In this document: positions 1-30,204 of the stretch, piece after piece
Numbering within the stretch: the first letter of the stretch is position 1
How the letters are laid out: each line of letters opens with the position of its first letter
Source of the DNA: Escherichia coli
GTDB lineage: Bacteria; Pseudomonadota; Gammaproteobacteria; Enterobacterales; Enterobacteriaceae
Length of the DNA: 64,000 bases
Assembly: GCF_013315695.1 (NCBI RefSeq)
Contig: NZ_CP054353.1
Direction: 5' to 3' (one strand)
Notes under the pieces: model-generated
The model's input: only the letters and a program-made list of their open reading frames with translations
What the model was told of the DNA's origin: nothing
The model's database searches: none
Made by a program: the position numbers and the translations under genes

Positions 1-1011
1 AATGGTGTTGATGAATTTGGTTTTTCATATGCCAAAATGCGAACAAAAGATAATATGACAGGACAATCATCTGCACTTAGTCTGCATACATGCAGTGCAT
101 CCCGGGGGATTGATGTTAGTGGCGATAATAAGTATTGCACTGTTTCATGCAGGGTTAAAGCTCCTGATGGTCTTCGTTGTCGTTTGCGTTTTGAAAAATA
201 CGATGGGTCGGTTTATACATTTTTAGGAGATGCTTATTTAACTTTCGGAACTCTGATAATAGAAAAAACTGGCGGAGCAGCCAATAGAATAGCAGCTACT
301 GCAACTAAAGATCCGGTTACAGGGTGGATTTTCTATGAGGCAACTATAGAAGCTGTTGAAGGTGAAACCTTAATTGGCGCAATGATTCAGTATGCGCCGA
401 AAAAAGGTGGTATAACTGAAGCGGGAGATTATATTTACCTTGCAACACCACAATTTGAAAACGGCGGATGTGCTTCATCTTTTGTTATTACGACAACTGC
501 ACCCGCAACCCGCTCCAGTGATATGGTGACGATCCCAACTGAAAATAATATCTATAATAGACCGCTTACGTGTCTTGTCGAGGTTAATAGAAATTGGGGC
601 GATATTCCTCCTAATGTAGCACCGCGTATTTTTGATTTTTCTGGTGTGCCACCTATTGAGTCAATTACATACGCTTTTAACACAACTGAGAAATATTACG
701 GTCAGCTTTATATGCAAACTTATAAAGCGTCGACAAGTACTTACGTTTCTAGTGTGTTTGCTGGTCGAGCTGATGTTCGAAAATTCATTGGTGGTTTTAA
801 TATTTATTCTGATGGTACTAAACGAGTAGTTTCTAACGGTGAGGCTACTAAAACTATGAAAACGGAGTGGACGGGCGTAAAAACACGGACCTTTATTCGA
901 ATTGGAGGTCAAGCCACATCGGGAACTCGTCATCTATTCGGCCATTTGAGAAATCTTCGTCTCTGGCATAAAGAATTAACTGATGCGCAAATGGGGGAGA
1001 GTATTAAATGA
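1..1011 (+). CDS. Phage tail-fibre / receptor-binding protein, C-terminal part with LamG-like (concanavalin-like) domain; 5' end beyond window
   Basis: The reading frame is open from position 1 (first ATG at 37). C-terminus ...GGQATSGTRHLFGHLRNLRLWHKELTDAQM resembles LamG-fold ends of phage fibre proteins. Stop overlaps the next ORF start (ATGA). Confidence 0.45.
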   Translation, partial: NGVDEFGFSYAKMRTKDNMTGQSSALSLHTCSASRGIDVSGDNKYCTVSCRVKAPDGLRCRLRFEKYDGSVYTFLGDAYLTFGTLIIEKTGGAANRIAATATKDPVTGWIFYEATIEAVEGETLIGAMIQYAPKKGGITEAGDYIYLATPQFENGGCASSFVITTTAPATRSSDMVTIPTENNIYNRPLTCLVEVNRNWGDIPPNVAPRIFDFSGVPPIESITYAFNTTEKYYGQLYMQTYKASTSTYVSSVFAGRADVRKFIGGFNIYSDGTKRVVSNGEATKTMKTEWTGVKTRTFIRIGGQATSGTRHLFGHLRNLRLWHKELTDAQMGESIK

Positions 1012-1289
1012 AAGATTTAACACTCAAATTTGCAGACAGGGCCGACTTTTCGGCCTTTATGGAGAGCATTGGCTATTATGATGACGAGTCGATGCAGGAT
1101 GATATTCTTATTGACGTGATAGGTAATGTGTACAAAGAAACCGGAGAACTTACTGAAGATGGCGAGCCGGTATGTGTTAAGGAGGACGGATATTTTGTAA
1201 ATGTGCGCATCATTAATGATTCGCAAATATCGTCATTATTCGATGAATACGTGGTTGCTGTTGAGCATCAACTCCGTAGCTGGATGTGA
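1008..1289 (+). CDS. Hypothetical small prophage protein (93 aa), translationally coupled to the upstream fibre gene
   Basis: ORF with a 4-nt overlap with the preceding stop, in the same operon-like array. No recognisable motif. Confidence 0.35.
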   Translation: MKDLTLKFADRADFSAFMESIGYYDDESMQDDILIDVIGNVYKETGELTEDGEPVCVKEDGYFVNVRIINDSQISSLFDEYVVAVEHQLRSWM

Positions 1290-1298
1290 GGAAGAAAA

Positions 1299-2003
1299 AT
1301 GGCTACATCGACAGTAATTCCTGATGACATCAAAACGCTAAAGGGAGATGTCAGTAAGGCAAAGGAAGATATTTCCTCAATTAACGTAAAAGTATCAACG
1401 CTTCAGACTGATATGGACAGTGCAAAGCAGGATATCAGTACCAGATACACAAAAACAGAAGTGGATAATAAGCTGAAAAACAAAGTGGAAGTGAACGATC
1501 TGGAAAGTGGTCGTTATGGCGGAGATTTTTACCCGCTGACTGGCCGTGAAGCGTTTTATTTATGGGGATTGGGCACAACTACAGCGGCGGCAAATCTTTA
1601 TCTTAATCCTGACCCTGCAATTTCGTCTGTGCTGCGGTCAACATCGTCTATCCGCTATAAACATTCAGTAGAGACGATAGATTCAGAGCACGCCGATCTC
1701 ATTTTCAGGATGCGCCCTGTGTGGTACAGGTCGCAATGCGAAAATGACAGGCGTGACTGGGGATTCTATGGATTGATTGCCGAGGAAGTAGGAGAAATTG
1801 CCCCTCAGTTTGTTCACTGGCGACCAGCCAACGAAGATGATGCACCGGAAACCATTTCCAGCAATGGCCTTGTTGCCGAAGGTGTAATGTACGAACGTCT
1901 GGTTGTTCCACTGATTCACCATATCCAGAAACTGACTGAAAGAGTTGATGAACTTGAGTCAGAATTGAAGTTGTTATCAACTTCCCAAAGCGATATCGGA
2001 TAA
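1299..2003 (+). CDS. Short tail-fibre-like protein with C-terminal peptidase-S74-type intramolecular chaperone domain
   Basis: N-terminal coiled-coil-like segment. C-terminal region has an S..R.K motif (SSIRYK) followed by LIFRMRPVWY...GFYGLIAEEVGEIAPQFV...YERLVVPLIHHIQKL, the typical signature of self-cleaving chaperone domains of phage fibres/endosialidases. Confidence 0.55.
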   Translation: MATSTVIPDDIKTLKGDVSKAKEDISSINVKVSTLQTDMDSAKQDISTRYTKTEVDNKLKNKVEVNDLESGRYGGDFYPLTGREAFYLWGLGTTTAAANLYLNPDPAISSVLRSTSSIRYKHSVETIDSEHADLIFRMRPVWYRSQCENDRRDWGFYGLIAEEVGEIAPQFVHWRPANEDDAPETISSNGLVAEGVMYERLVVPLIHHIQKLTERVDELESELKLLSTSQSDIG

Positions 2004-2013
2004 AGGAGGAGTA

Positions 2014-2307
2014 ATGGATATAACACCTTTTCTTCATGCGCTTTGTGCTGTGGCTGCGCAGGTAATGATTGGTCTTTTTGCCGGAAACTGGGTTTACGGG
2101 GCGATAGCCGGTTGTACGTTCTTCATTGCGCGTGAACACACCCAGGCAGAATATCGCTGGATTGAAATGTTCGGGCATGGCAAGTGGATTAACATGCCGT
2201 GGTGGGGCGGTTTTGATCCGCGTGTTTGGGATGTGGCAAGCCTGATAGATTTTGCTGTGCCGGTGGTGGCGTGTCTGCTGGTCTGGCTGTTGGTTAATCG
2301 TGGGTGA
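2014..2307 (+). CDS. Hypothetical small membrane protein (97 aa, about 3 predicted TM helices) of prophage origin
   Basis: Hydrophobic segments (LHALCAVAAQVMIGLFAGNWVYGAIAGCTFFIA; FAVPVVACLLVWLLV). Lies directly after the fibre genes. Confidence 0.35.
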   Translation: MDITPFLHALCAVAAQVMIGLFAGNWVYGAIAGCTFFIAREHTQAEYRWIEMFGHGKWINMPWWGGFDPRVWDVASLIDFAVPVVACLLVWLLVNRG

Positions 2308-2317
2308 AAAAAGGTGA

Positions 2318-2446
2318 GCTGTATATGCAACGGAGGAAGAAACCCCGTTGCTGGAAGCCTGGAAAAAGTATCGGGTGTTGCTGAACCGTGTTGATACATC
2401 AACTGCACCTGATATTGAGTGGCCTACGAACCCTGTCAGGGAGTAA
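2318..2446 (+). pseudogene. Tail fibre assembly protein (Tfa) C-terminal fragment
   Basis: Frame translation ...[38 protein letters not shown] matches the conserved Tfa C-terminus. No N-terminal part upstream, and an in-frame stop at 2315-2317. Confidence 0.55.
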
Positions 2447-2500
2447 TCATTGGGATTATGCCGCAGCACGTCTTAAGCAAGAACGTGCTGCGGTTGGATG

Positions 2501-3169
2501 CTATTTTTTCCCTGAAGCGGAAAACATTACTACAGTACCTTGAACCTTGGTTTTAACATTCTCGAAATGCTCTGAGAGTATATGTGTTAAGCCTTCTTCG
2601 GAATCTTTTGTGTTTGAAAAGATGCCTTTCTGATTGTAAATGCGCATCAGTTTTTGACCGAAGCTATTGTGCACAACTCCATCGCCAAGAATTGTGGCTC
2701 CGTATAGAGTTCCATCGTCAGTTAAGGCCTGCGCCGCATTGCGTATTACACAGCTTTTTGTAGATATATTTCCAGGCAGGCAGTGAAGAAGGTAAAACAT
2801 GGAAATGGAATCAAATTGACCATGTAACGCCGCGGGATAAGGTTCAAAAACATCATGGCTAATTTTATGTTTAATTTTTGATTCCCCAGCCCTTGTAGAT
2901 GCCGCGTTCAGGCTAGCTTCGTTCAAATCCATTAAAGATATCAGACTACTCTCAGGTACGTGAGTAAGGTAAAACCCAGTTCCAACACCAATATCCAGAT
3001 GGTTGTTACCTAAATGTTCCAGAAAGTGTGGAAGAAGGTGTTCCTTTGTAGGACATCCCCATGCAAGCCGATTTGATACTCCCAAAACCCACCAGTCATA
3101 AAGCTTTAGGGTAAGTGGTGTGTAAATTTTAGCCCCATCATCTGTGTTTTTTTTCATTAATTTCACCAT
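2501..3169 (-). CDS. ybcY: SAM-dependent methyltransferase (YbcY-like, prophage-borne)
   Basis: 222-aa ORF with class-I methyltransferase motif I (LDIGVGTGFY). Lies between two tfa fragments, as ybcY does in K-12 DLP12. The ORF is intact here. Confidence 0.6.
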   Translation of the reverse strand: MVKLMKKNTDDGAKIYTPLTLKLYDWWVLGVSNRLAWGCPTKEHLLPHFLEHLGNNHLDIGVGTGFYLTHVPESSLISLMDLNEASLNAASTRAGESKIKHKISHDVFEPYPAALHGQFDSISMFYLLHCLPGNISTKSCVIRNAAQALTDDGTLYGATILGDGVVHNSFGQKLMRIYNQKGIFSNTKDSEEGLTHILSEHFENVKTKVQGTVVMFSASGKK

Positions 3170-3225
3170 GTTATAGTTTTATTTGTGAATTAAATCAATT
3201 ATGGCGATGAATTACAAGGGGTTAA

Positions 3226-3524
3226 ATGCTGCCGCAGCATAGCGATATTGAAATAGCCTGGTATGCTTCGATACAGCAGGAGCCGAATGGCTGGAAGACC
3301 GTCACCACACAGTTCTACATCCAGGAATTCAGTGAGTATATTGCGCCACTGCAGGATGCTGGGAAATCGCAACGGAGGAAGAAAGATCGTTGCTGGAGGC
3401 ATGGAATAAATATCGGGTATTGTTGAATCATGTTGATACATCAGTAGCTCTGGGTATGAAGCTGTTTGTAACTCATGTTACAGTAACAGCCATTACTATC
3501 TCGAAGGTGCAAAATGTATATTGA
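3226..3524 (+). pseudogene. tfaX: Tail fibre assembly protein fragment, frameshifted (tfaX-like)
   Basis: ORF 3226-3426 contains Tfa-like ...[10 protein letters not shown]... and then shifts frame. The next frame reads [27 protein letters not shown]... and then diverges from the Tfa consensus. Confidence 0.5.
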
Positions 3525-3651
3525 TTTGATATTTTATAAATTTACTTCGAATCTGGCACGTCAACTTTTGATTAAAGTAATATCAGTTTTCGGCGAAAAA
3601 AGGACCGTGTACATGAGACGATTTCATACAAGAATAACAAAAATATGAATA

Positions 3652-3688
3652 TGCTCCCAATGCAATATATGTTTTGCATTGGGAGCAA
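3652..3688 (-). terminator. Hairpin terminator downstream of the hydrolase gene
   Basis: Perfect 14-bp inverted repeat TGCTCCCAATGCAA-N9-TTGCATTGGGAGCA with A/T-rich flanks, just 3' of the minus-strand CDS ending at 3711. Confidence 0.45.
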
Positions 3689-3710
3689 ATAGCGGAATAT
3701 TTTGAAATTA

Positions 3711-5192
3711 TTATATTTCTGCTTCAGAATTTCCTGGGCAGTATATATTTTCTATTTTTTGTGGAGTGATCAGGTGATGTACAACTGCTTTATCTACACA
3801 TAAATTAACTCCGGTGAGAGCTAATGTATGCCCATCACCATTTATTGTTAGTAACGGGCTGGAAAATTTCTCTGCCATCTTACGGGCATTAATCCAGGGC
3901 GTTGTTGGGTCGTATTTGTGTGCTACAAACAGTAAACCAGAGGGCAGAACAGTATTTTTCAGGCGAGTTTTGTTCAGGTCGCTATGTATTGGCCATAATT
4001 CACAAAAATCAGGTGAATCGGAACGTCCATTGTCAAAGTTAATAGCCGGGAAGGCATTCGCAAGAGCGTCTTTTCGGGATTTTCGCTCTTCTGGTGTTAA
4101 TTGCTCATCCCCCTGATCTACACAGAGGATTACCCCCGAAGCATCGCTTGACTCTTCTGAGGCTATCTGAGCACTGAGCGCAGTTTCAATTTCATTACTG
4201 ACAATCCCCTGAGAGAACTGGCGTATGGCAGTTGCAAGGGTTGGCCATGATGAACGCCATAGCAGAAGGTCTGTTGTTAATGATATGAGTTCATCTGAAG
4301 ATATATTTTCTCCCTTACTGTCTAATAAAGGTTTGTGATGTAATTTTGATAATAGCTCATGGAACTGAGTTATTGCCTTATCTCTGTCTGAAGAAAGCGG
4401 GCAACTTTTTGTACGCGCACACCAGGATGCAAAGCGATCAAACGTTTCCTGATAACTCTGTGCCTGTTTGAGTTGCCATGTGAAGTTGTCCTCCAGGTCA
4501 TCGATATCGACGACTCCATCAAGAACGATAGATCTTACGTTGTAGGGAAAACGTTCTGCATATAAGGCTGCAATTTGAGTTCCATACGAATACGCCACGG
4601 CTGTCAGTTGTTTATCCCCCAAGGCTTGCCTAATACGATCAATATCGTATACAGCCTCGTTAGAGCCGATATGGCGAATGACTTCGGCTCCGGTATTATG
4701 GATACAGGCATTAATTTTATTTAATACTTGTTGCTTTTCGGTTATGTTTTCCTGAGTCTCTGTATCTGATTGCCGGCAGTTTATTGTCGGAGTGGACTGT
4801 CCGACGCCTCGAGGATCAAATCCAATAATATCCCATGACTCACGAAGATTTGTGACTGGCCAGTCAAAGTTAATATAAGGATTTATGCCTGGTAACCCGG
4901 GACCACCACTTATTATCAGGATACTTCCTTTATGCTTGCTTTTTGCCGGCAATTTTGTCAACGCTAGTTTGACTTGTGATTTTTTTTCATAAGAAGCATC
5001 TCCGCCTGTGTCTGTATATTTTAATGGAACAGACAAATAACCACATAGTAAGTCAGGAGACGGTTTTTCCTCACCAAACCAGTGGTTGAATTGACTGGCC
5101 ATACAGGATTGCCACTGTATCTGCTGGGCAGATACGGTTACTGGTAGAAGTAACGTTAAAACAACTTTGAAATGAGTAATTATTTTTCGCAT
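3711..5192 (-). CDS. Secreted alpha/beta-fold hydrolase (peptidase S33 / TAP-like family)
   Basis: 493-aa ORF with N-terminal signal-peptide-like segment (MRKIITHFKVVLTLLLPVTVSAQQ), oxyanion-hole region GFDPRGVGQS and nucleophile elbow AYSYGTQ (GxSxG). Gene is AT-rich and occupies the position of appY in K-12. Confidence 0.7.
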   Translation of the reverse strand: MRKIITHFKVVLTLLLPVTVSAQQIQWQSCMASQFNHWFGEEKPSPDLLCGYLSVPLKYTDTGGDASYEKKSQVKLALTKLPAKSKHKGSILIISGGPGLPGINPYINFDWPVTNLRESWDIIGFDPRGVGQSTPTINCRQSDTETQENITEKQQVLNKINACIHNTGAEVIRHIGSNEAVYDIDRIRQALGDKQLTAVAYSYGTQIAALYAERFPYNVRSIVLDGVVDIDDLEDNFTWQLKQAQSYQETFDRFASWCARTKSCPLSSDRDKAITQFHELLSKLHHKPLLDSKGENISSDELISLTTDLLLWRSSWPTLATAIRQFSQGIVSNEIETALSAQIASEESSDASGVILCVDQGDEQLTPEERKSRKDALANAFPAINFDNGRSDSPDFCELWPIHSDLNKTRLKNTVLPSGLLFVAHKYDPTTPWINARKMAEKFSSPLLTINGDGHTLALTGVNLCVDKAVVHHLITPQKIENIYCPGNSEAEI

Positions 5193-5322
5193 TGTGTCTC
5201 TGAATATCGGAATAAAGATAAGATTTGAATATATTGAGGTCTTGTGTTGCGGTAAGAGATTACACGTTATGACATAGGTTAAATGCTTACAAAATTAGTG
5301 GATATTGTCTACTTGTAACTGT

Positions 5323-5360
5323 AAACAAATTCCCCGGGGTTATACAATACCACCGGGGAG
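5323..5360 (-). terminator. Rho-independent terminator of ompT
   Basis: Hairpin CCCCGG...CCGGGG followed on the minus strand by TTTGTTT, immediately 3' of the ompT stop. Confidence 0.45.
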
Positions 5361-5378
5361 AAAATCTGGTTAACTTCG

Positions 5379-6332
5379 TTAAAAGGTGTACTTAAGACCA
5401 GCAGTAGTGATGAAGTTATAGTTTTCTATGCCTGCACCATTTTTGCTGTAGTCTGAAGTGTTATCATTGTGATCATAAAGTGAAGTATTACCTTTTTTAT
5501 TCGTAACCCGATTCCATGCGCCTTCAACATAAACTTTTGCGTTAGGTGTTACGTAATAACCTGCATTGACTGCAACAGAATAGTAATTTTGGTCTTTGAC
5601 TTTACTGCGATAAGTGATTCTTTTTCCTGGGTCATAGTGCTCATCGTTATCAGATGCTTCCACCCAGCCGCTGTATTTAAATGTGCCACCTAGCTCAAAA
5701 TCTTCATAACGATAACTTCCAGTCAAGCCAATGTAGGGCATTTTAAAACGTTGTTTGTAGCCGATTGCTCTTTCTCCATTCGGGAAGGAGCCGATATCAT
5801 CTCTGAATCCCTCCTCAGAACTGTAGATATAGGAACCACCTCTGGCTGTAAAGCTATAACGGCTTTCCTGATATCCGGCCATGAGTCCCAGGCGGTAATT
5901 GGGTTCGTTGAGGAGCCAGCCTTTGATATTCAGATCAAATTCGTTGGCATAATTGAGTTGTGTATCAGGGTGCCTACTTTCATCTGTCCAGGTTCCGGGG
6001 TTACTGGAATCCATCCAGTCCTGATCGACCATATTGCCACCTCGGCTGCCGAGAGTAGTCCAGCCCGCAGCCCCAATAGATATCTGGGGCATCAAATCCC
6101 AATTAATTGCACCTTTAATAATTGCAGCGTTATTGAATTTCCAGTCGAGTTGACTGACTTTTCGGCCTCCTTCTTCAGCTAGATAAACGCGCTCTTTTGT
6201 TTTTCCGCTCAGAGTTCCAAGACTAATGTCCGCATTTATGTTGTCAGGAGTAAACGATATAGTCTCGGTAGAAGCAAAAGAGCTGATCGCAATAGGGGTT
6301 GTCAGGACTATTCCCAGAAGTTTCGCCCGCAT
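5379..6332 (-). CDS. ompT: Outer membrane protease OmpT (omptin)
   Basis: 317-aa ORF MRAKLLGIVLTTPIAISSFA...AGLKYTF, recognised as OmpT precursor. Confidence 0.95.
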   Translation of the reverse strand: MRAKLLGIVLTTPIAISSFASTETISFTPDNINADISLGTLSGKTKERVYLAEEGGRKVSQLDWKFNNAAIIKGAINWDLMPQISIGAAGWTTLGSRGGNMVDQDWMDSSNPGTWTDESRHPDTQLNYANEFDLNIKGWLLNEPNYRLGLMAGYQESRYSFTARGGSYIYSSEEGFRDDIGSFPNGERAIGYKQRFKMPYIGLTGSYRYEDFELGGTFKYSGWVEASDNDEHYDPGKRITYRSKVKDQNYYSVAVNAGYYVTPNAKVYVEGAWNRVTNKKGNTSLYDHNDNTSDYSKNGAGIENYNFITTAGLKYTF

Positions 6333-6754
6333 AAAAGTTCTCCATTCAATCGTTTTAATGATTGAATATGTATTTTTTATATCTAACTTAATGAGTCAAT
6401 TACATATTGCTCCACTGTTTATATTTTGTTTAGTATTGAATGATTATCACAATGCGCTATCTGTTTTTGGTTTAATTATCTGTTATTGTTTTATGTTGCG
6501 GTTTTACTGTGTGGTTTTTTATGCTTTTGTGGTGTTTTTATCTATTTAAGCGCCATGCCTTTAGAGGCATATAAGCGAAAATAGCATGAGGTTTATCCTC
6601 AATTGCTATGTTTTTTGGTACAAAAAAGAGGGACAAAACTGAGACACATAAGGCCTCACAATGGCTTGCAAGGCTTTACATGTTTTGAGGTAGTGGGACG
6701 TGTGAGCGCAGAGATGGCGCGGTAAGTTGTTGACTTAAAATGTCGTTCTAGGAA

Positions 6755-6799
6755 CTTCTAAGTCGTGGGCCGCAGGTTCGAATCCTGCAGGGCGCGCCA
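6755..6799 (+). other. attR: 45-nt copy of the 3' end of tRNA-Arg(UCU) argU (anticodon loop through CCA), not a full tRNA
   Basis: CTTCTAAGTCGTGGGCCGCAGGTTCGAATCCTGCAGGGCGCGCCA: T-arm GCAGG/TTCGAAT/CCTGC, acceptor 3' strand and CCA present, but no matching 5' half upstream. Confidence 0.7.
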
Positions 6800-6844
6800 T
6801 TTCTTCTTCATTTATCCCCGTCTTATCCGTTTCCGCTTTGCCCT

Positions 6845-29884: not shown

Positions 29885-29950
29885 AGGAAGGGTAAGATAA
29901 CTGCGGGTGCCTGAAGCTTTCCGGTTTCAGGTTTACTTTGAGGTCTGGAA
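29885..29950 (-). ncRNA. sokE: Putative sokE antisense RNA of the hokE type I toxin-antitoxin locus (position approximate)
   Basis: Inferred from hok/sok locus architecture (antisense to the mok start/hok leader). Boundaries not determined from sequence. Confidence 0.25.
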
Positions 29951-30204
29951 AGATGAAGCCCCAGGAGATATTTCTATCAACCCTGGGGCTGCCACTCCAA
30001 ACCCGAACAATTTGGATGGTAGTCCCTTCTTCGCATGGAGGCAATATAAACATGCTGACGAAATATGCCCTTGTGGCAGTCATAGTGCTGTGTTTAACGG
30101 TGCTGGGATTTACGCTTCTGGTCGGAGACTCGCTGTGTGAGTTTACGGTGAAGGAACGTAATATTGAGTTTAAGGCTGTTCTCGCTTACGAACCGAAGAA
30201 GTAG
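29938..30204 (+). CDS. mokE: mokE, overlapping reading frame that mediates hokE translation
   Basis: 88-codon frame that runs through and ends with hokE, as in hok/mok loci. True start uncertain. Confidence 0.4.
30052..30204 (+). CDS. hokE: HokE type I toxin (Hok/Gef family)
   Basis: 50 aa, [50 protein letters not shown]. Followed by hairpin TGCGGGGAGTAATCCCCGCA (30207-30227). Confidence 0.85.

Follow-up and report, generated by a model that had tools for sequence, protein, structure and literature searches.

The locus described here occupies positions 1–3524 of a 64,000-nt stretch of Escherichia coli DNA (contig NZ_CP054353.1; "the window" in what follows). It begins within a gene for a side tail fiber (Stf) of the phage lambda type, continues with genes encoding proteins of 93, 234, and 97 amino acids (aa), and ends with remnants of two tfa genes on either side of a methyltransferase gene, ybcY. 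The stf-tfa locus of lambda has in common with it the position after J and lom, the PF08400 domain, a conserved N-terminal shaft with a variable distal end, and a tfa 3' end downstream. The differences lie in the tip, which in lambda is of the lambda/T4 gp37 type and here apparently consists of two lectin-like beta-sandwiches (one resembling the spike fiber of a gene transfer agent, GTA, the other LamG), and in what follows it: lambda has a functional Tfa, whereas here there is none, and the 93-, 234-, and 97-aa genes stand in its stead.

A two-protein fiber has a precedent in phage DT57C, where LtfB rides on LtfA (PMC10713586). Like the LtfA/LtfB pair and pb1 of phage T5, the present locus encodes two fiber proteins adjacently and has YTKTEVD-type shaft repeats. 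Unlike in DT57C, only the second, very short protein has a chaperone domain, and the first is a LamG-ended fiber that has the 93-aa protein as its partner. In T1-like phages (Drexlerviridae; e.g., vB_EcoS_XY3 and BASEL PeterMerian), the trio of LamG-ended fiber, 92-aa protein, and S74 protein of ~231–245 aa recurs at 51–64% protein identity, but these phages have another N-terminal fiber anchor and no 97-aa gene, and are virulent. A more distant likeness is to the head spike fiber domain of the Rhodobacter capsulatus GTA, which shares the model NF048003 with Stf aa 434–634. GTA head spikes bind capsular polysaccharide; the domain belongs to a head spike in R. capsulatus and to a tail side fiber here, where glycan binding is putative.

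The chromosomal site and right arm are those of the cryptic prophage DLP12 of E. coli K-12 (tfaD-ybcY-tfaX-appY-ompT), with 97% identity over window positions 2327–3448 and homology again from 5329 (ompT on). K-12 differs in having lost everything between the terminase genes and tfaD, and in having a full-length tfaD (187 aa), a ybcY pseudogene, and appY in place of a hydrolase gene. A first-pass annotation of the window had contrasted its fiber genes with the K-12 DLP12 arrangement. The difference is real, but DLP12 has no fiber genes with which to share an arrangement; what separates the two is therefore a deletion in K-12 together with a cassette swap here.

In the reading preferred here, which together with the cassette exchange and mechanism set out below is given a probability of roughly 70%, positions 1–3524 belong to a DLP12-family lambdoid prophage integrated at argU and cover the last part of its late operon and the beginning of its cargo ("b-region") arm. 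The locus is of a known kind, a mosaic lambdoid side-fiber locus with a two-protein fiber as in DT57C, and its sequence is already public, being near-identical on alignment to that of the sequenced plaque-forming phage PhiR49_1. Its features are as follows.

1–1011, + strand: 3' part of stf (side tail fiber of lambda Stf type, 798 aa in full), encoding its last 336 aa; frame open from base 1
1008–1289, + strand: 93-aa open reading frame (ORF), its ATG overlapping the stf stop as ATGA (translational coupling)
1299–2003, + strand: 234-aa S74 protein, probable mini-fiber, 9 nt past the 93-aa stop; Shine-Dalgarno GAGGAAG
2014–2307, + strand: 97-aa predicted inner-membrane protein, 10 nt past the 234-aa stop; Shine-Dalgarno AAGGAGG
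2327–2446, + strand: 39-codon Tfa 3' remnant, corresponding to the tfaD 3' end in K-12; Caudo_TAP, E 8.5e-17
2460–2510, + strand: stem-loop with U run between the convergent tfa remnant and ybcY, from folding energy
2501–3169, − strand: ybcY, class I S-adenosylmethionine (SAM)-dependent methyltransferase; Methyltransf_12/23/25/11 above Pfam cut-offs
3226–3524, + strand: tfaX, frameshifted 3'-truncated Tfa remnant; Tfa-homologous part 3319–3443, frame shift at 3369

Every feature named in the first-pass annotation was found where it had been placed, including the four tightly packed, co-oriented genes at the start, which are all on the + strand with one ATGA overlap and gaps of 9 and 10 nt. The fiber-module genes are not chance ORFs: each has hundreds of homologs, and the ratio of nonsynonymous to synonymous substitution rates (dN/dS) is 0.16–0.32. 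Computed across 29–50 distinct alleles, it is 0.18 for the 93-aa gene, 0.16 for the 234-aa gene, and 0.32 for the 97-aa gene, all of which are thus under purifying selection.

Chromosomal position and closest relatives

Over positions 1–3700 the window shows 100% identity to three E. coli chromosomes, those of MSB1_4I and two further strains. At least 80% of this segment is present in one place in only 25 of 5426 complete genomes, and some part of it, mainly the ybcY/tfa stretch, in 4905. In the RefSeq annotation of MSB1_4I, terminase, portal, capsid, and tail genes, J, and lom lie upstream, followed by the gene for the 798-aa Stf, whose last 336 residues are window positions 1–1008; an alpha/beta hydrolase gene, ompT, envY, ybcH, and nfrA lie downstream of the fiber locus. 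This is the DLP12/ompT site, with argU and intD on the opposite side of the prophage.

Phage PhiR49_1 (PV340568) is 99.9% identical to the window over 6.8 kb (positions 1–6805), and its 45.3-kb record includes integrase, cI, cro, O, Q, lysis, head, and tail genes. The panel description in PMC13190303 places it among ECOR-derived temperate phages for plaque assays and credits the panel to Brenes & Laub 2025. Phage 2G7b (Nesevirus, NC_049954) is 99.4% identical over window positions 2013–6320. Both phages, like the window, have ybcY, both tfa remnants, the hydrolase gene, and ompT within the phage genome; unlike the window, 2G7b has another Stf distal allele and a 346-aa S74 allele. The small genes of the module are labeled merely as hypothetical proteins in both records.

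Stf and the mosaic structure of the fiber locus

The first ORF had been read as the C-terminal end of a fiber gene, and upstream extension through MSB1_4I confirms this. It completes a 798-aa Stf (stop codon at 1009–1011; N-terminal part beyond the window) that matches PF08400, the prophage tail fiber N-terminal domain, at 229.8 bits against a cut-off of 26.6 and is encoded after J and lom in the lambdoid late operon, as annotated in both MSB1_4I and PhiR49_1. The NCBIfam model GTA_spike_fiber (NF048003) matches aa 434–634 at 58.1 bits (cut-off 36). In the predicted structure, the distal end has a jelly-roll beta-sandwich fold resembling LamG, pentraxin, or CBM40, and on this model the C-terminus may hold a variable receptor-binding region of two beta-sandwich domains, the second LamG/ConA-like. 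Stf would dock on the tail tip via its N-terminal domain, and the LamG/CBM-like distal domains would bind a surface glycan. No intact Tfa (Caudo_TAP) was found directly downstream of stf, only the 39-codon remnant and the frameshifted one, and no other tfa is annotated in PhiR49_1.

Cassette boundaries were set by comparison with 2G7b, IdasGreatGrand, E. coli Nissle 1917, and K-12. As these sequences align, the fiber locus alternates conserved anchors and variable cassettes, in the order Stf shaft (aa 1–442), V1, a 450-bp anchor, V2, and a final anchor (the 97-aa gene). V1 corresponds to Stf aa ~443–759, with the two beta-sandwich lectin-like domains. The 450-bp anchor (893–1342) is made up of the last ~39 Stf codons (893–1011), which are themselves conserved, the 93-aa gene, and the 15 first codons of the S74 gene, and V2 is the S74 gene, with alleles of 234 or 346 aa. 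Relative to 2G7b, homology is 90–92% over Stf aa 1–442, lost at aa 443–759, regained at window positions 893–1342, lost again over 1343–2012, and back at 99.4% from 2013 on.

A wider sample gives the same picture. With the 93-aa protein as query, 80 IMG/VR loci were recovered, in which the product of the following gene always starts MATSTVIP; the S74 allele is ~234 aa long in 30 of them and ~346 aa in 31. Their Stf distal regions form 19 clusters or more; of those with several members, five are seen with both S74 alleles. By this comparison of loci, E. coli prophages carry reassorted combinations of V1 and V2 alleles.

At the right-hand end, alignment with K-12 places the joint of the cassette 20 nt after the 97-aa stop, where it meets codon ~149 of a resident tfaD and leaves a 39-codon scar. 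The scar spans Caudo_TAP profile positions 95–130 of 131, the last 36, a match at 2327–2446 in agreement with the Tfa C-terminal fragment recognized earlier. Sequences found after the 97-aa stop are of two main classes, one with a hairpin terminator (as in IdasGreatGrand) and the other with an identical 20-nt spacer and tfa remnant. The second occurs at many loci, among them the DLP12 site and the icd/sit prophage of Nissle; the junction therefore arose once and then spread. Cassette exchange of host-range determinants, suspected from the window alone, is thus borne out by synteny with DLP12 and intact lambdoid phages, which established both the two variable segments between conserved anchors and the restart of K-12 homology exactly at 2327, inside tfaD.

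The icd/sit prophage of Nissle has a variant of the module, consisting of a broken Stf, a 92-aa partner, and the 97-aa gene, without an S74 gene. The same tfa-scar junction is cut there after 20 codons by sitABCD iron/manganese transporter cargo, and the Nissle-type arrangement is present also on the 195-kb plasmid p23AR0151A.

The 93- and 97-aa proteins

Relatives of the 93-aa protein at 32–38% identity show the same 4-nt overlap with the gene upstream, whose product has the LamG_3 motif LFGH.RN.R.WH..L at its C-terminus, and this coupling holds with or without a nearby S74 gene. The family looks like an obligate partner of LamG-ended fibers, and we infer that the 93-aa protein is the dedicated partner of this fiber type. 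It would serve as the assembly factor or distal subunit of Stf, in the role that Tfa plays for lambda-type Stf. Its predicted structure is alpha/beta and confident (predicted local distance difference test, pLDDT, 86.6), and a structure search with this model returned no informative neighbor.

The 97-aa protein has three hydrophobic segments by hydropathy, at about residues 3–24, 25–39, and 74–95, as expected from its initial description as a membrane protein. A loop, AREHTQAEYRWI...NMPWWGGFD, shows no variation from Escherichia, Salmonella, and Leclercia to Aeromonas and Comamonas. The family is PHROG 1443, with 556 homologous clusters; searches of the protein against Pfam, NCBIfam, and PADLOC gave no match. 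The gene directly follows a receptor-binding-protein gene in a P22-like phage and in a Comamonas prophage, directly follows the fiber gene in P2/HP1-like prophages (where the fiber also has S74), lies between two tailspike genes on a Salmonella-assembly contig, and comes after the receptor-binding-protein gene in lambdoid phages generally. In the late operon it comes last, and the family as a whole is tied to receptor-binding-protein genes. Co-expressed as the last late gene, the protein would act in the host envelope in a role linked to receptor-binding proteins.

With the odds somewhat against it, the two proteins may represent uncharacterized accessory families that accompany receptor-binding-protein genes, the 93-aa protein as a Tfa substitute and the 97-aa protein as a late membrane factor that works with glycan-targeting receptor-binding proteins in prophages of the siphovirus, podovirus, and myovirus types. 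A place for the 97-aa protein outside the fiber system, as the product of an unrelated lysogenic-conversion or superinfection-exclusion gene at the end of the operon, is conceivable but doubtful. It would fit with the absence of the gene from virulent T1-like phages that have the other three, with its position at the junction to the cargo arm, with the matching position of conversion genes in P22-like phages, and with an Aeromonas homolog that stands alone in the chromosome, close to lipid A acyltransferase genes. However, no promoter of its own was detected in a promoter scan. A strong Shine-Dalgarno sequence 10 nt from the previous stop and, in JEP4, overlap with the tailspike stop argue that the gene is expressed with the late genes, and its place behind receptor-binding-protein genes recurs in five unrelated tail architectures. 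A defense role for the 93-, 234-, and 97-aa proteins was rejected, since none matched any defense-system model in PADLOC.

The 234-aa S74 protein

The 234-aa protein consists of a conserved N-terminus (MATSTVIPDDIKTLK), T5-type shaft repeats (YTKTEVD-type, residues 21–65, resembling the LtfA shaft), a small tip, and a Peptidase_S74 domain from S116. The chaperone domain of this type that had been predicted is upheld by the Pfam model (27.3 bits against a cut-off of 22, residues 116–172 corresponding to profile positions 1–57 of 58) and by an intact Ser/Lys dyad. S116 and K121, five residues apart, do not vary among 10 relatives, one of which is the divergent 346-aa allele with canonical SDRDLK, itself S74-positive (52.3 bits). 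In alignment, both residues fall in the cleavage-site region of MYRF and DT57C LtfA, and LtfA (8hqz) is the best match of the protein among PDB sequences, YTKTEVD repeat included.

From these features, the C-terminal intramolecular chaperone would assist the protein in forming trimers, and the S116/K121 dyad would cut it between T115 and S116, the predicted autocleavage site. It appears, then, to be a very short fiber that processes itself to about 115 residues. The mature mini-fiber would join the virion via its conserved N-terminus as a second, independently exchangeable fiber element; if carried on Stf, it would parallel LtfB on LtfA in DT57C. An origin as a truncated remnant of a long fiber, suggested by a PHROG 3299 match at positions 1147–1384 of 1385, was rejected because the gene has its own Shine-Dalgarno sequence and ATG and a dN/dS of 0.16. 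Its length is also constant in 30 loci and in T1-like phages, many of which have homologs of 221–245 aa, and this counts against truncation.

Labels given to homologs suggest a different function. One, 56% identical, was called a "putative lateral tail fiber chaperone" by the annotators of a BASEL phage, and "chaperone of endosialidase" is also found. The 234-aa protein might accordingly replace Tfa as a trans-acting chaperone for the LamG-tipped Stf, to be released or degraded after assembly, without being a structural fiber. PhiR49_1 encodes no intact Tfa, the mature part is very short (~115 aa), its tip is rather well conserved where a receptor-binding domain would usually vary, and S74 alleles are linked with Stf C-terminal clusters. 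Such a role is nonetheless unlikely: the N-terminal half has shaft repeats of the T5/DT57C type, and the same tip and chaperone domain terminate bona fide fibers of 350–410 aa, where ordinary fiber repeats stand ahead of them. The partners of the 234-type allele come from 12 or more Stf C-terminal clusters that are mutually only 36–57% identical, and LamG-fiber and 93-aa pairs are known without any S74 gene, so Stf needs no S74 protein. To our knowledge, the characterized S74 domains (endoNF, T5 pb1) act in cis on their own polypeptide, which also counts against action in trans.

The chaperone label and the conserved tip weigh as well against the preferred reading of the locus, with its exchangeable two-protein fiber, and several other points belong with them. 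Pfam Laminin_G_3 stays below its gathering score on the window Stf (19.6 bits versus 27.6) and likewise on the Nissle allele (25.2 bits); the LamG-like end of the first-pass annotation holds as a predicted LamG-type beta-sandwich but not as a Pfam profile match. The model of the Stf C-terminus is of moderate confidence (pLDDT 75, from a 14-sequence alignment), and all structure predictions are of monomers. Allele pairing is non-random, with most Stf clusters favoring one S74 allele, and this preference could reflect functional matching instead of free exchange. Any virion membership of the 93-, 234-, and 97-aa proteins is putative, as is a DT57C-type attachment of the second fiber to the first, at which the order of the genes and the conserved start of the 234-aa protein hint; the functions given to the 93- and 97-aa proteins derive from gene linkage. 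Finally, lambda-type phages plaque without side fibers, and the viability of PhiR49_1 is hence no proof of a working module.

Prophage state

The region had also been taken for part of a decaying prophage. The tfa scars are no evidence of decay, because the complete, plaque-forming PhiR49_1 carries the same ones. "Defective" may be correct for a different reason. In the MSB1_4I prophage, IS1A takes the place of the PhiR49_1 segment from yfdQ to Q (cI, cro, O, methyltransferase, rusA, Q); ~9 kb of the immunity, replication, and antitermination region is gone, with all late genes kept. Judging from this gene content, the MSB1_4I copy is probably not inducible.

A non-functional relic, with drifting fiber genes and a mosaic produced by accumulated deletions, is an improbable description of the region. 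It could call on the two tfa pseudogene pieces, on the absence of cI, O, P, and Q beside IS1 from the prophage of the 100%-identical genome, on the heavy deletion of DLP12 in K-12, and on the broken stf of Nissle-type copies. All four fiber-module ORFs are intact, however, with dN/dS of 0.16–0.32 among the alleles compared and with translational coupling and Shine-Dalgarno sites preserved, and the same module and scars are present in PhiR49_1 and in environmental phage isolates.

The tfa remnants and ybcY

The second remnant, tfaX, is 82.6% identical at the nucleotide level to internal K-12 tfaD and is marked frameshifted and incomplete by the Prokaryotic Genome Annotation Pipeline (PGAP). Translations in two frames, from 3226 and 3369, compared with K-12 TfaD, are consistent with the frameshifted Tfa-like gene initially described. 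A 75-nt direct repeat between the first remnant (2327–2401) and tfaX has 85% identity, and both pieces encode the same C-terminal Tfa segment, ATEEE..LLEAW.KYRVLLN.VDTS; they are therefore two separate paralogous 3' ends and not halves of one gene. By their sequences, the two ends are remains of successive right-arm replacements. The simplest history has tfaX as the oldest layer, followed by the tfaD-ybcY unit and, latest, by the LamG-Stf/93/S74/97 cassette, which replaced the distal end of stf and most of tfaD. An invertible fiber segment (Mu Gin or e14 Pin type) was rejected, as the tfa repeats are direct and no invertase is annotated nearby.

The original suggestion of a moron-type insertion, taken as entry of ybcY into a single tfa that was split into the two flanking fragments, has in its favor the opposite strand of ybcY, its own reported promoter, its position between two tfa-like pieces, and a higher AT content than that of the 1400–2400 stretch, but is rejected as very improbable, because the 85%-identical direct repeats leave no complementary halves and K-12 keeps the tfaD-ybcY-tfaX order with a complete 187-aa tfaD upstream of ybcY and tfaX downstream.

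The stem-loop at 2460–2510 has a folding energy of −30.7 kcal/mol (z-score −4.76, with 0 of 200 shuffles equally stable) and is a probable terminator of the late (fiber) operon. A 45-aa "hypothetical protein" in RefSeq (2419–2556, + strand) overlaps the tfa remnant, the terminator hairpin, and the 3' end of ybcY and looks spurious. A 27-codon PGAP "DinI family" fragment (3244–3324, − strand) lies antisense to tfaX; a Pfam scan of its 27 residues was empty.

The intact, opposite-strand ybcY-like methyltransferase noted earlier is above cut-off for four class I models (Methyltransf_12 at 37.6 bits versus 30) and has the glycine-rich SAM motif LDIGVGTGF; the K-12 copy is a pseudogene. Its nearest solved relatives are UbiG and juvenile-hormone acid methyltransferase (JHAMT), and it resembles small-molecule methyltransferases of the UbiG, RquA, and JHAMT types. 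A DNA methyltransferase or defense gene was rejected on the basis of these UbiG/JHAMT-type relatives and of a PADLOC match of just 14 bits. In the ybcY-tfaX spacer of K-12, a sigma-70 promoter (TTGATT-17-TATAAC) and H-NS binding were reported from genomic systematic evolution of ligands by exponential enrichment (SELEX; PMC3946193), and the TTGATT and TATAAC hexamers are visible in the window at ~3176–3204. A consensus promoter scan at ybcY was not above chance, and a folding scan found no convincing terminator after its stop on the − strand. Plausibly, ybcY is independently transcribed prophage cargo. The annotated start (ATG at 3169) abuts the reported −10 TATAAC, and the PHROG 2132 alignment starts at residue 5. 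Translation probably begins instead at the ATG at 3157, for a protein of 218 aa, possibly from a transcript with a very short leader.

Other features of the window

Beyond the fiber locus, the following features were mapped.

3711–5192, − strand: secreted alpha/beta hydrolase (TAP-like), 493 aa; Abhydrolase_1, 116 bits
5379–6332, − strand: ompT, inside the genomes of the complete DLP12-type phages PhiR49_1 and 2G7b
29905–30060, + strand: sok antitoxin RNA; Rfam, 83.5 bits
59189–59282, + strand: STnc70 small RNA; Rfam, 42.2 bits
63045–63153, − strand: rnk leader; Rfam, 120.7 bits

The three Rfam matches are ordinary E. coli features unrelated to the fiber locus. The hydrolase gene takes the place of K-12 appY, K-12 homology being absent over 3449–5328. 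Its product has a signal-peptide-like N-terminus and matches the PADLOC candidate-defense model C3a206 (E 2.7e-56). With its location inside complete phage genomes, ompT is cargo of an active phage family and not just part of a cryptic remnant. PhiR49_1 also has an nmpC/OmpD-like porin gene.

Implications

Apart from the widespread, unannotated 93- and 97-aa families, both under purifying selection, what is seen here is expected lambdoid mosaicism. If the 97-aa protein is indeed a late membrane factor coupled to receptor-binding proteins, it might interfere with how the receptor glycan is made or displayed, or keep out superinfecting phage. The "cryptic" DLP12 region of K-12 has intact, plaque-forming relatives with ompT, ybcY, and a secreted hydrolase as cargo. 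Side-fiber cassettes determine which surface glycans a temperate phage can use, and this locus maps how they recombine, with two variable blocks, three conserved anchors, and a tfa 3' scar as the right-hand joint. Such a cassette map serves both host-range engineering and the reconstruction of prophage histories.

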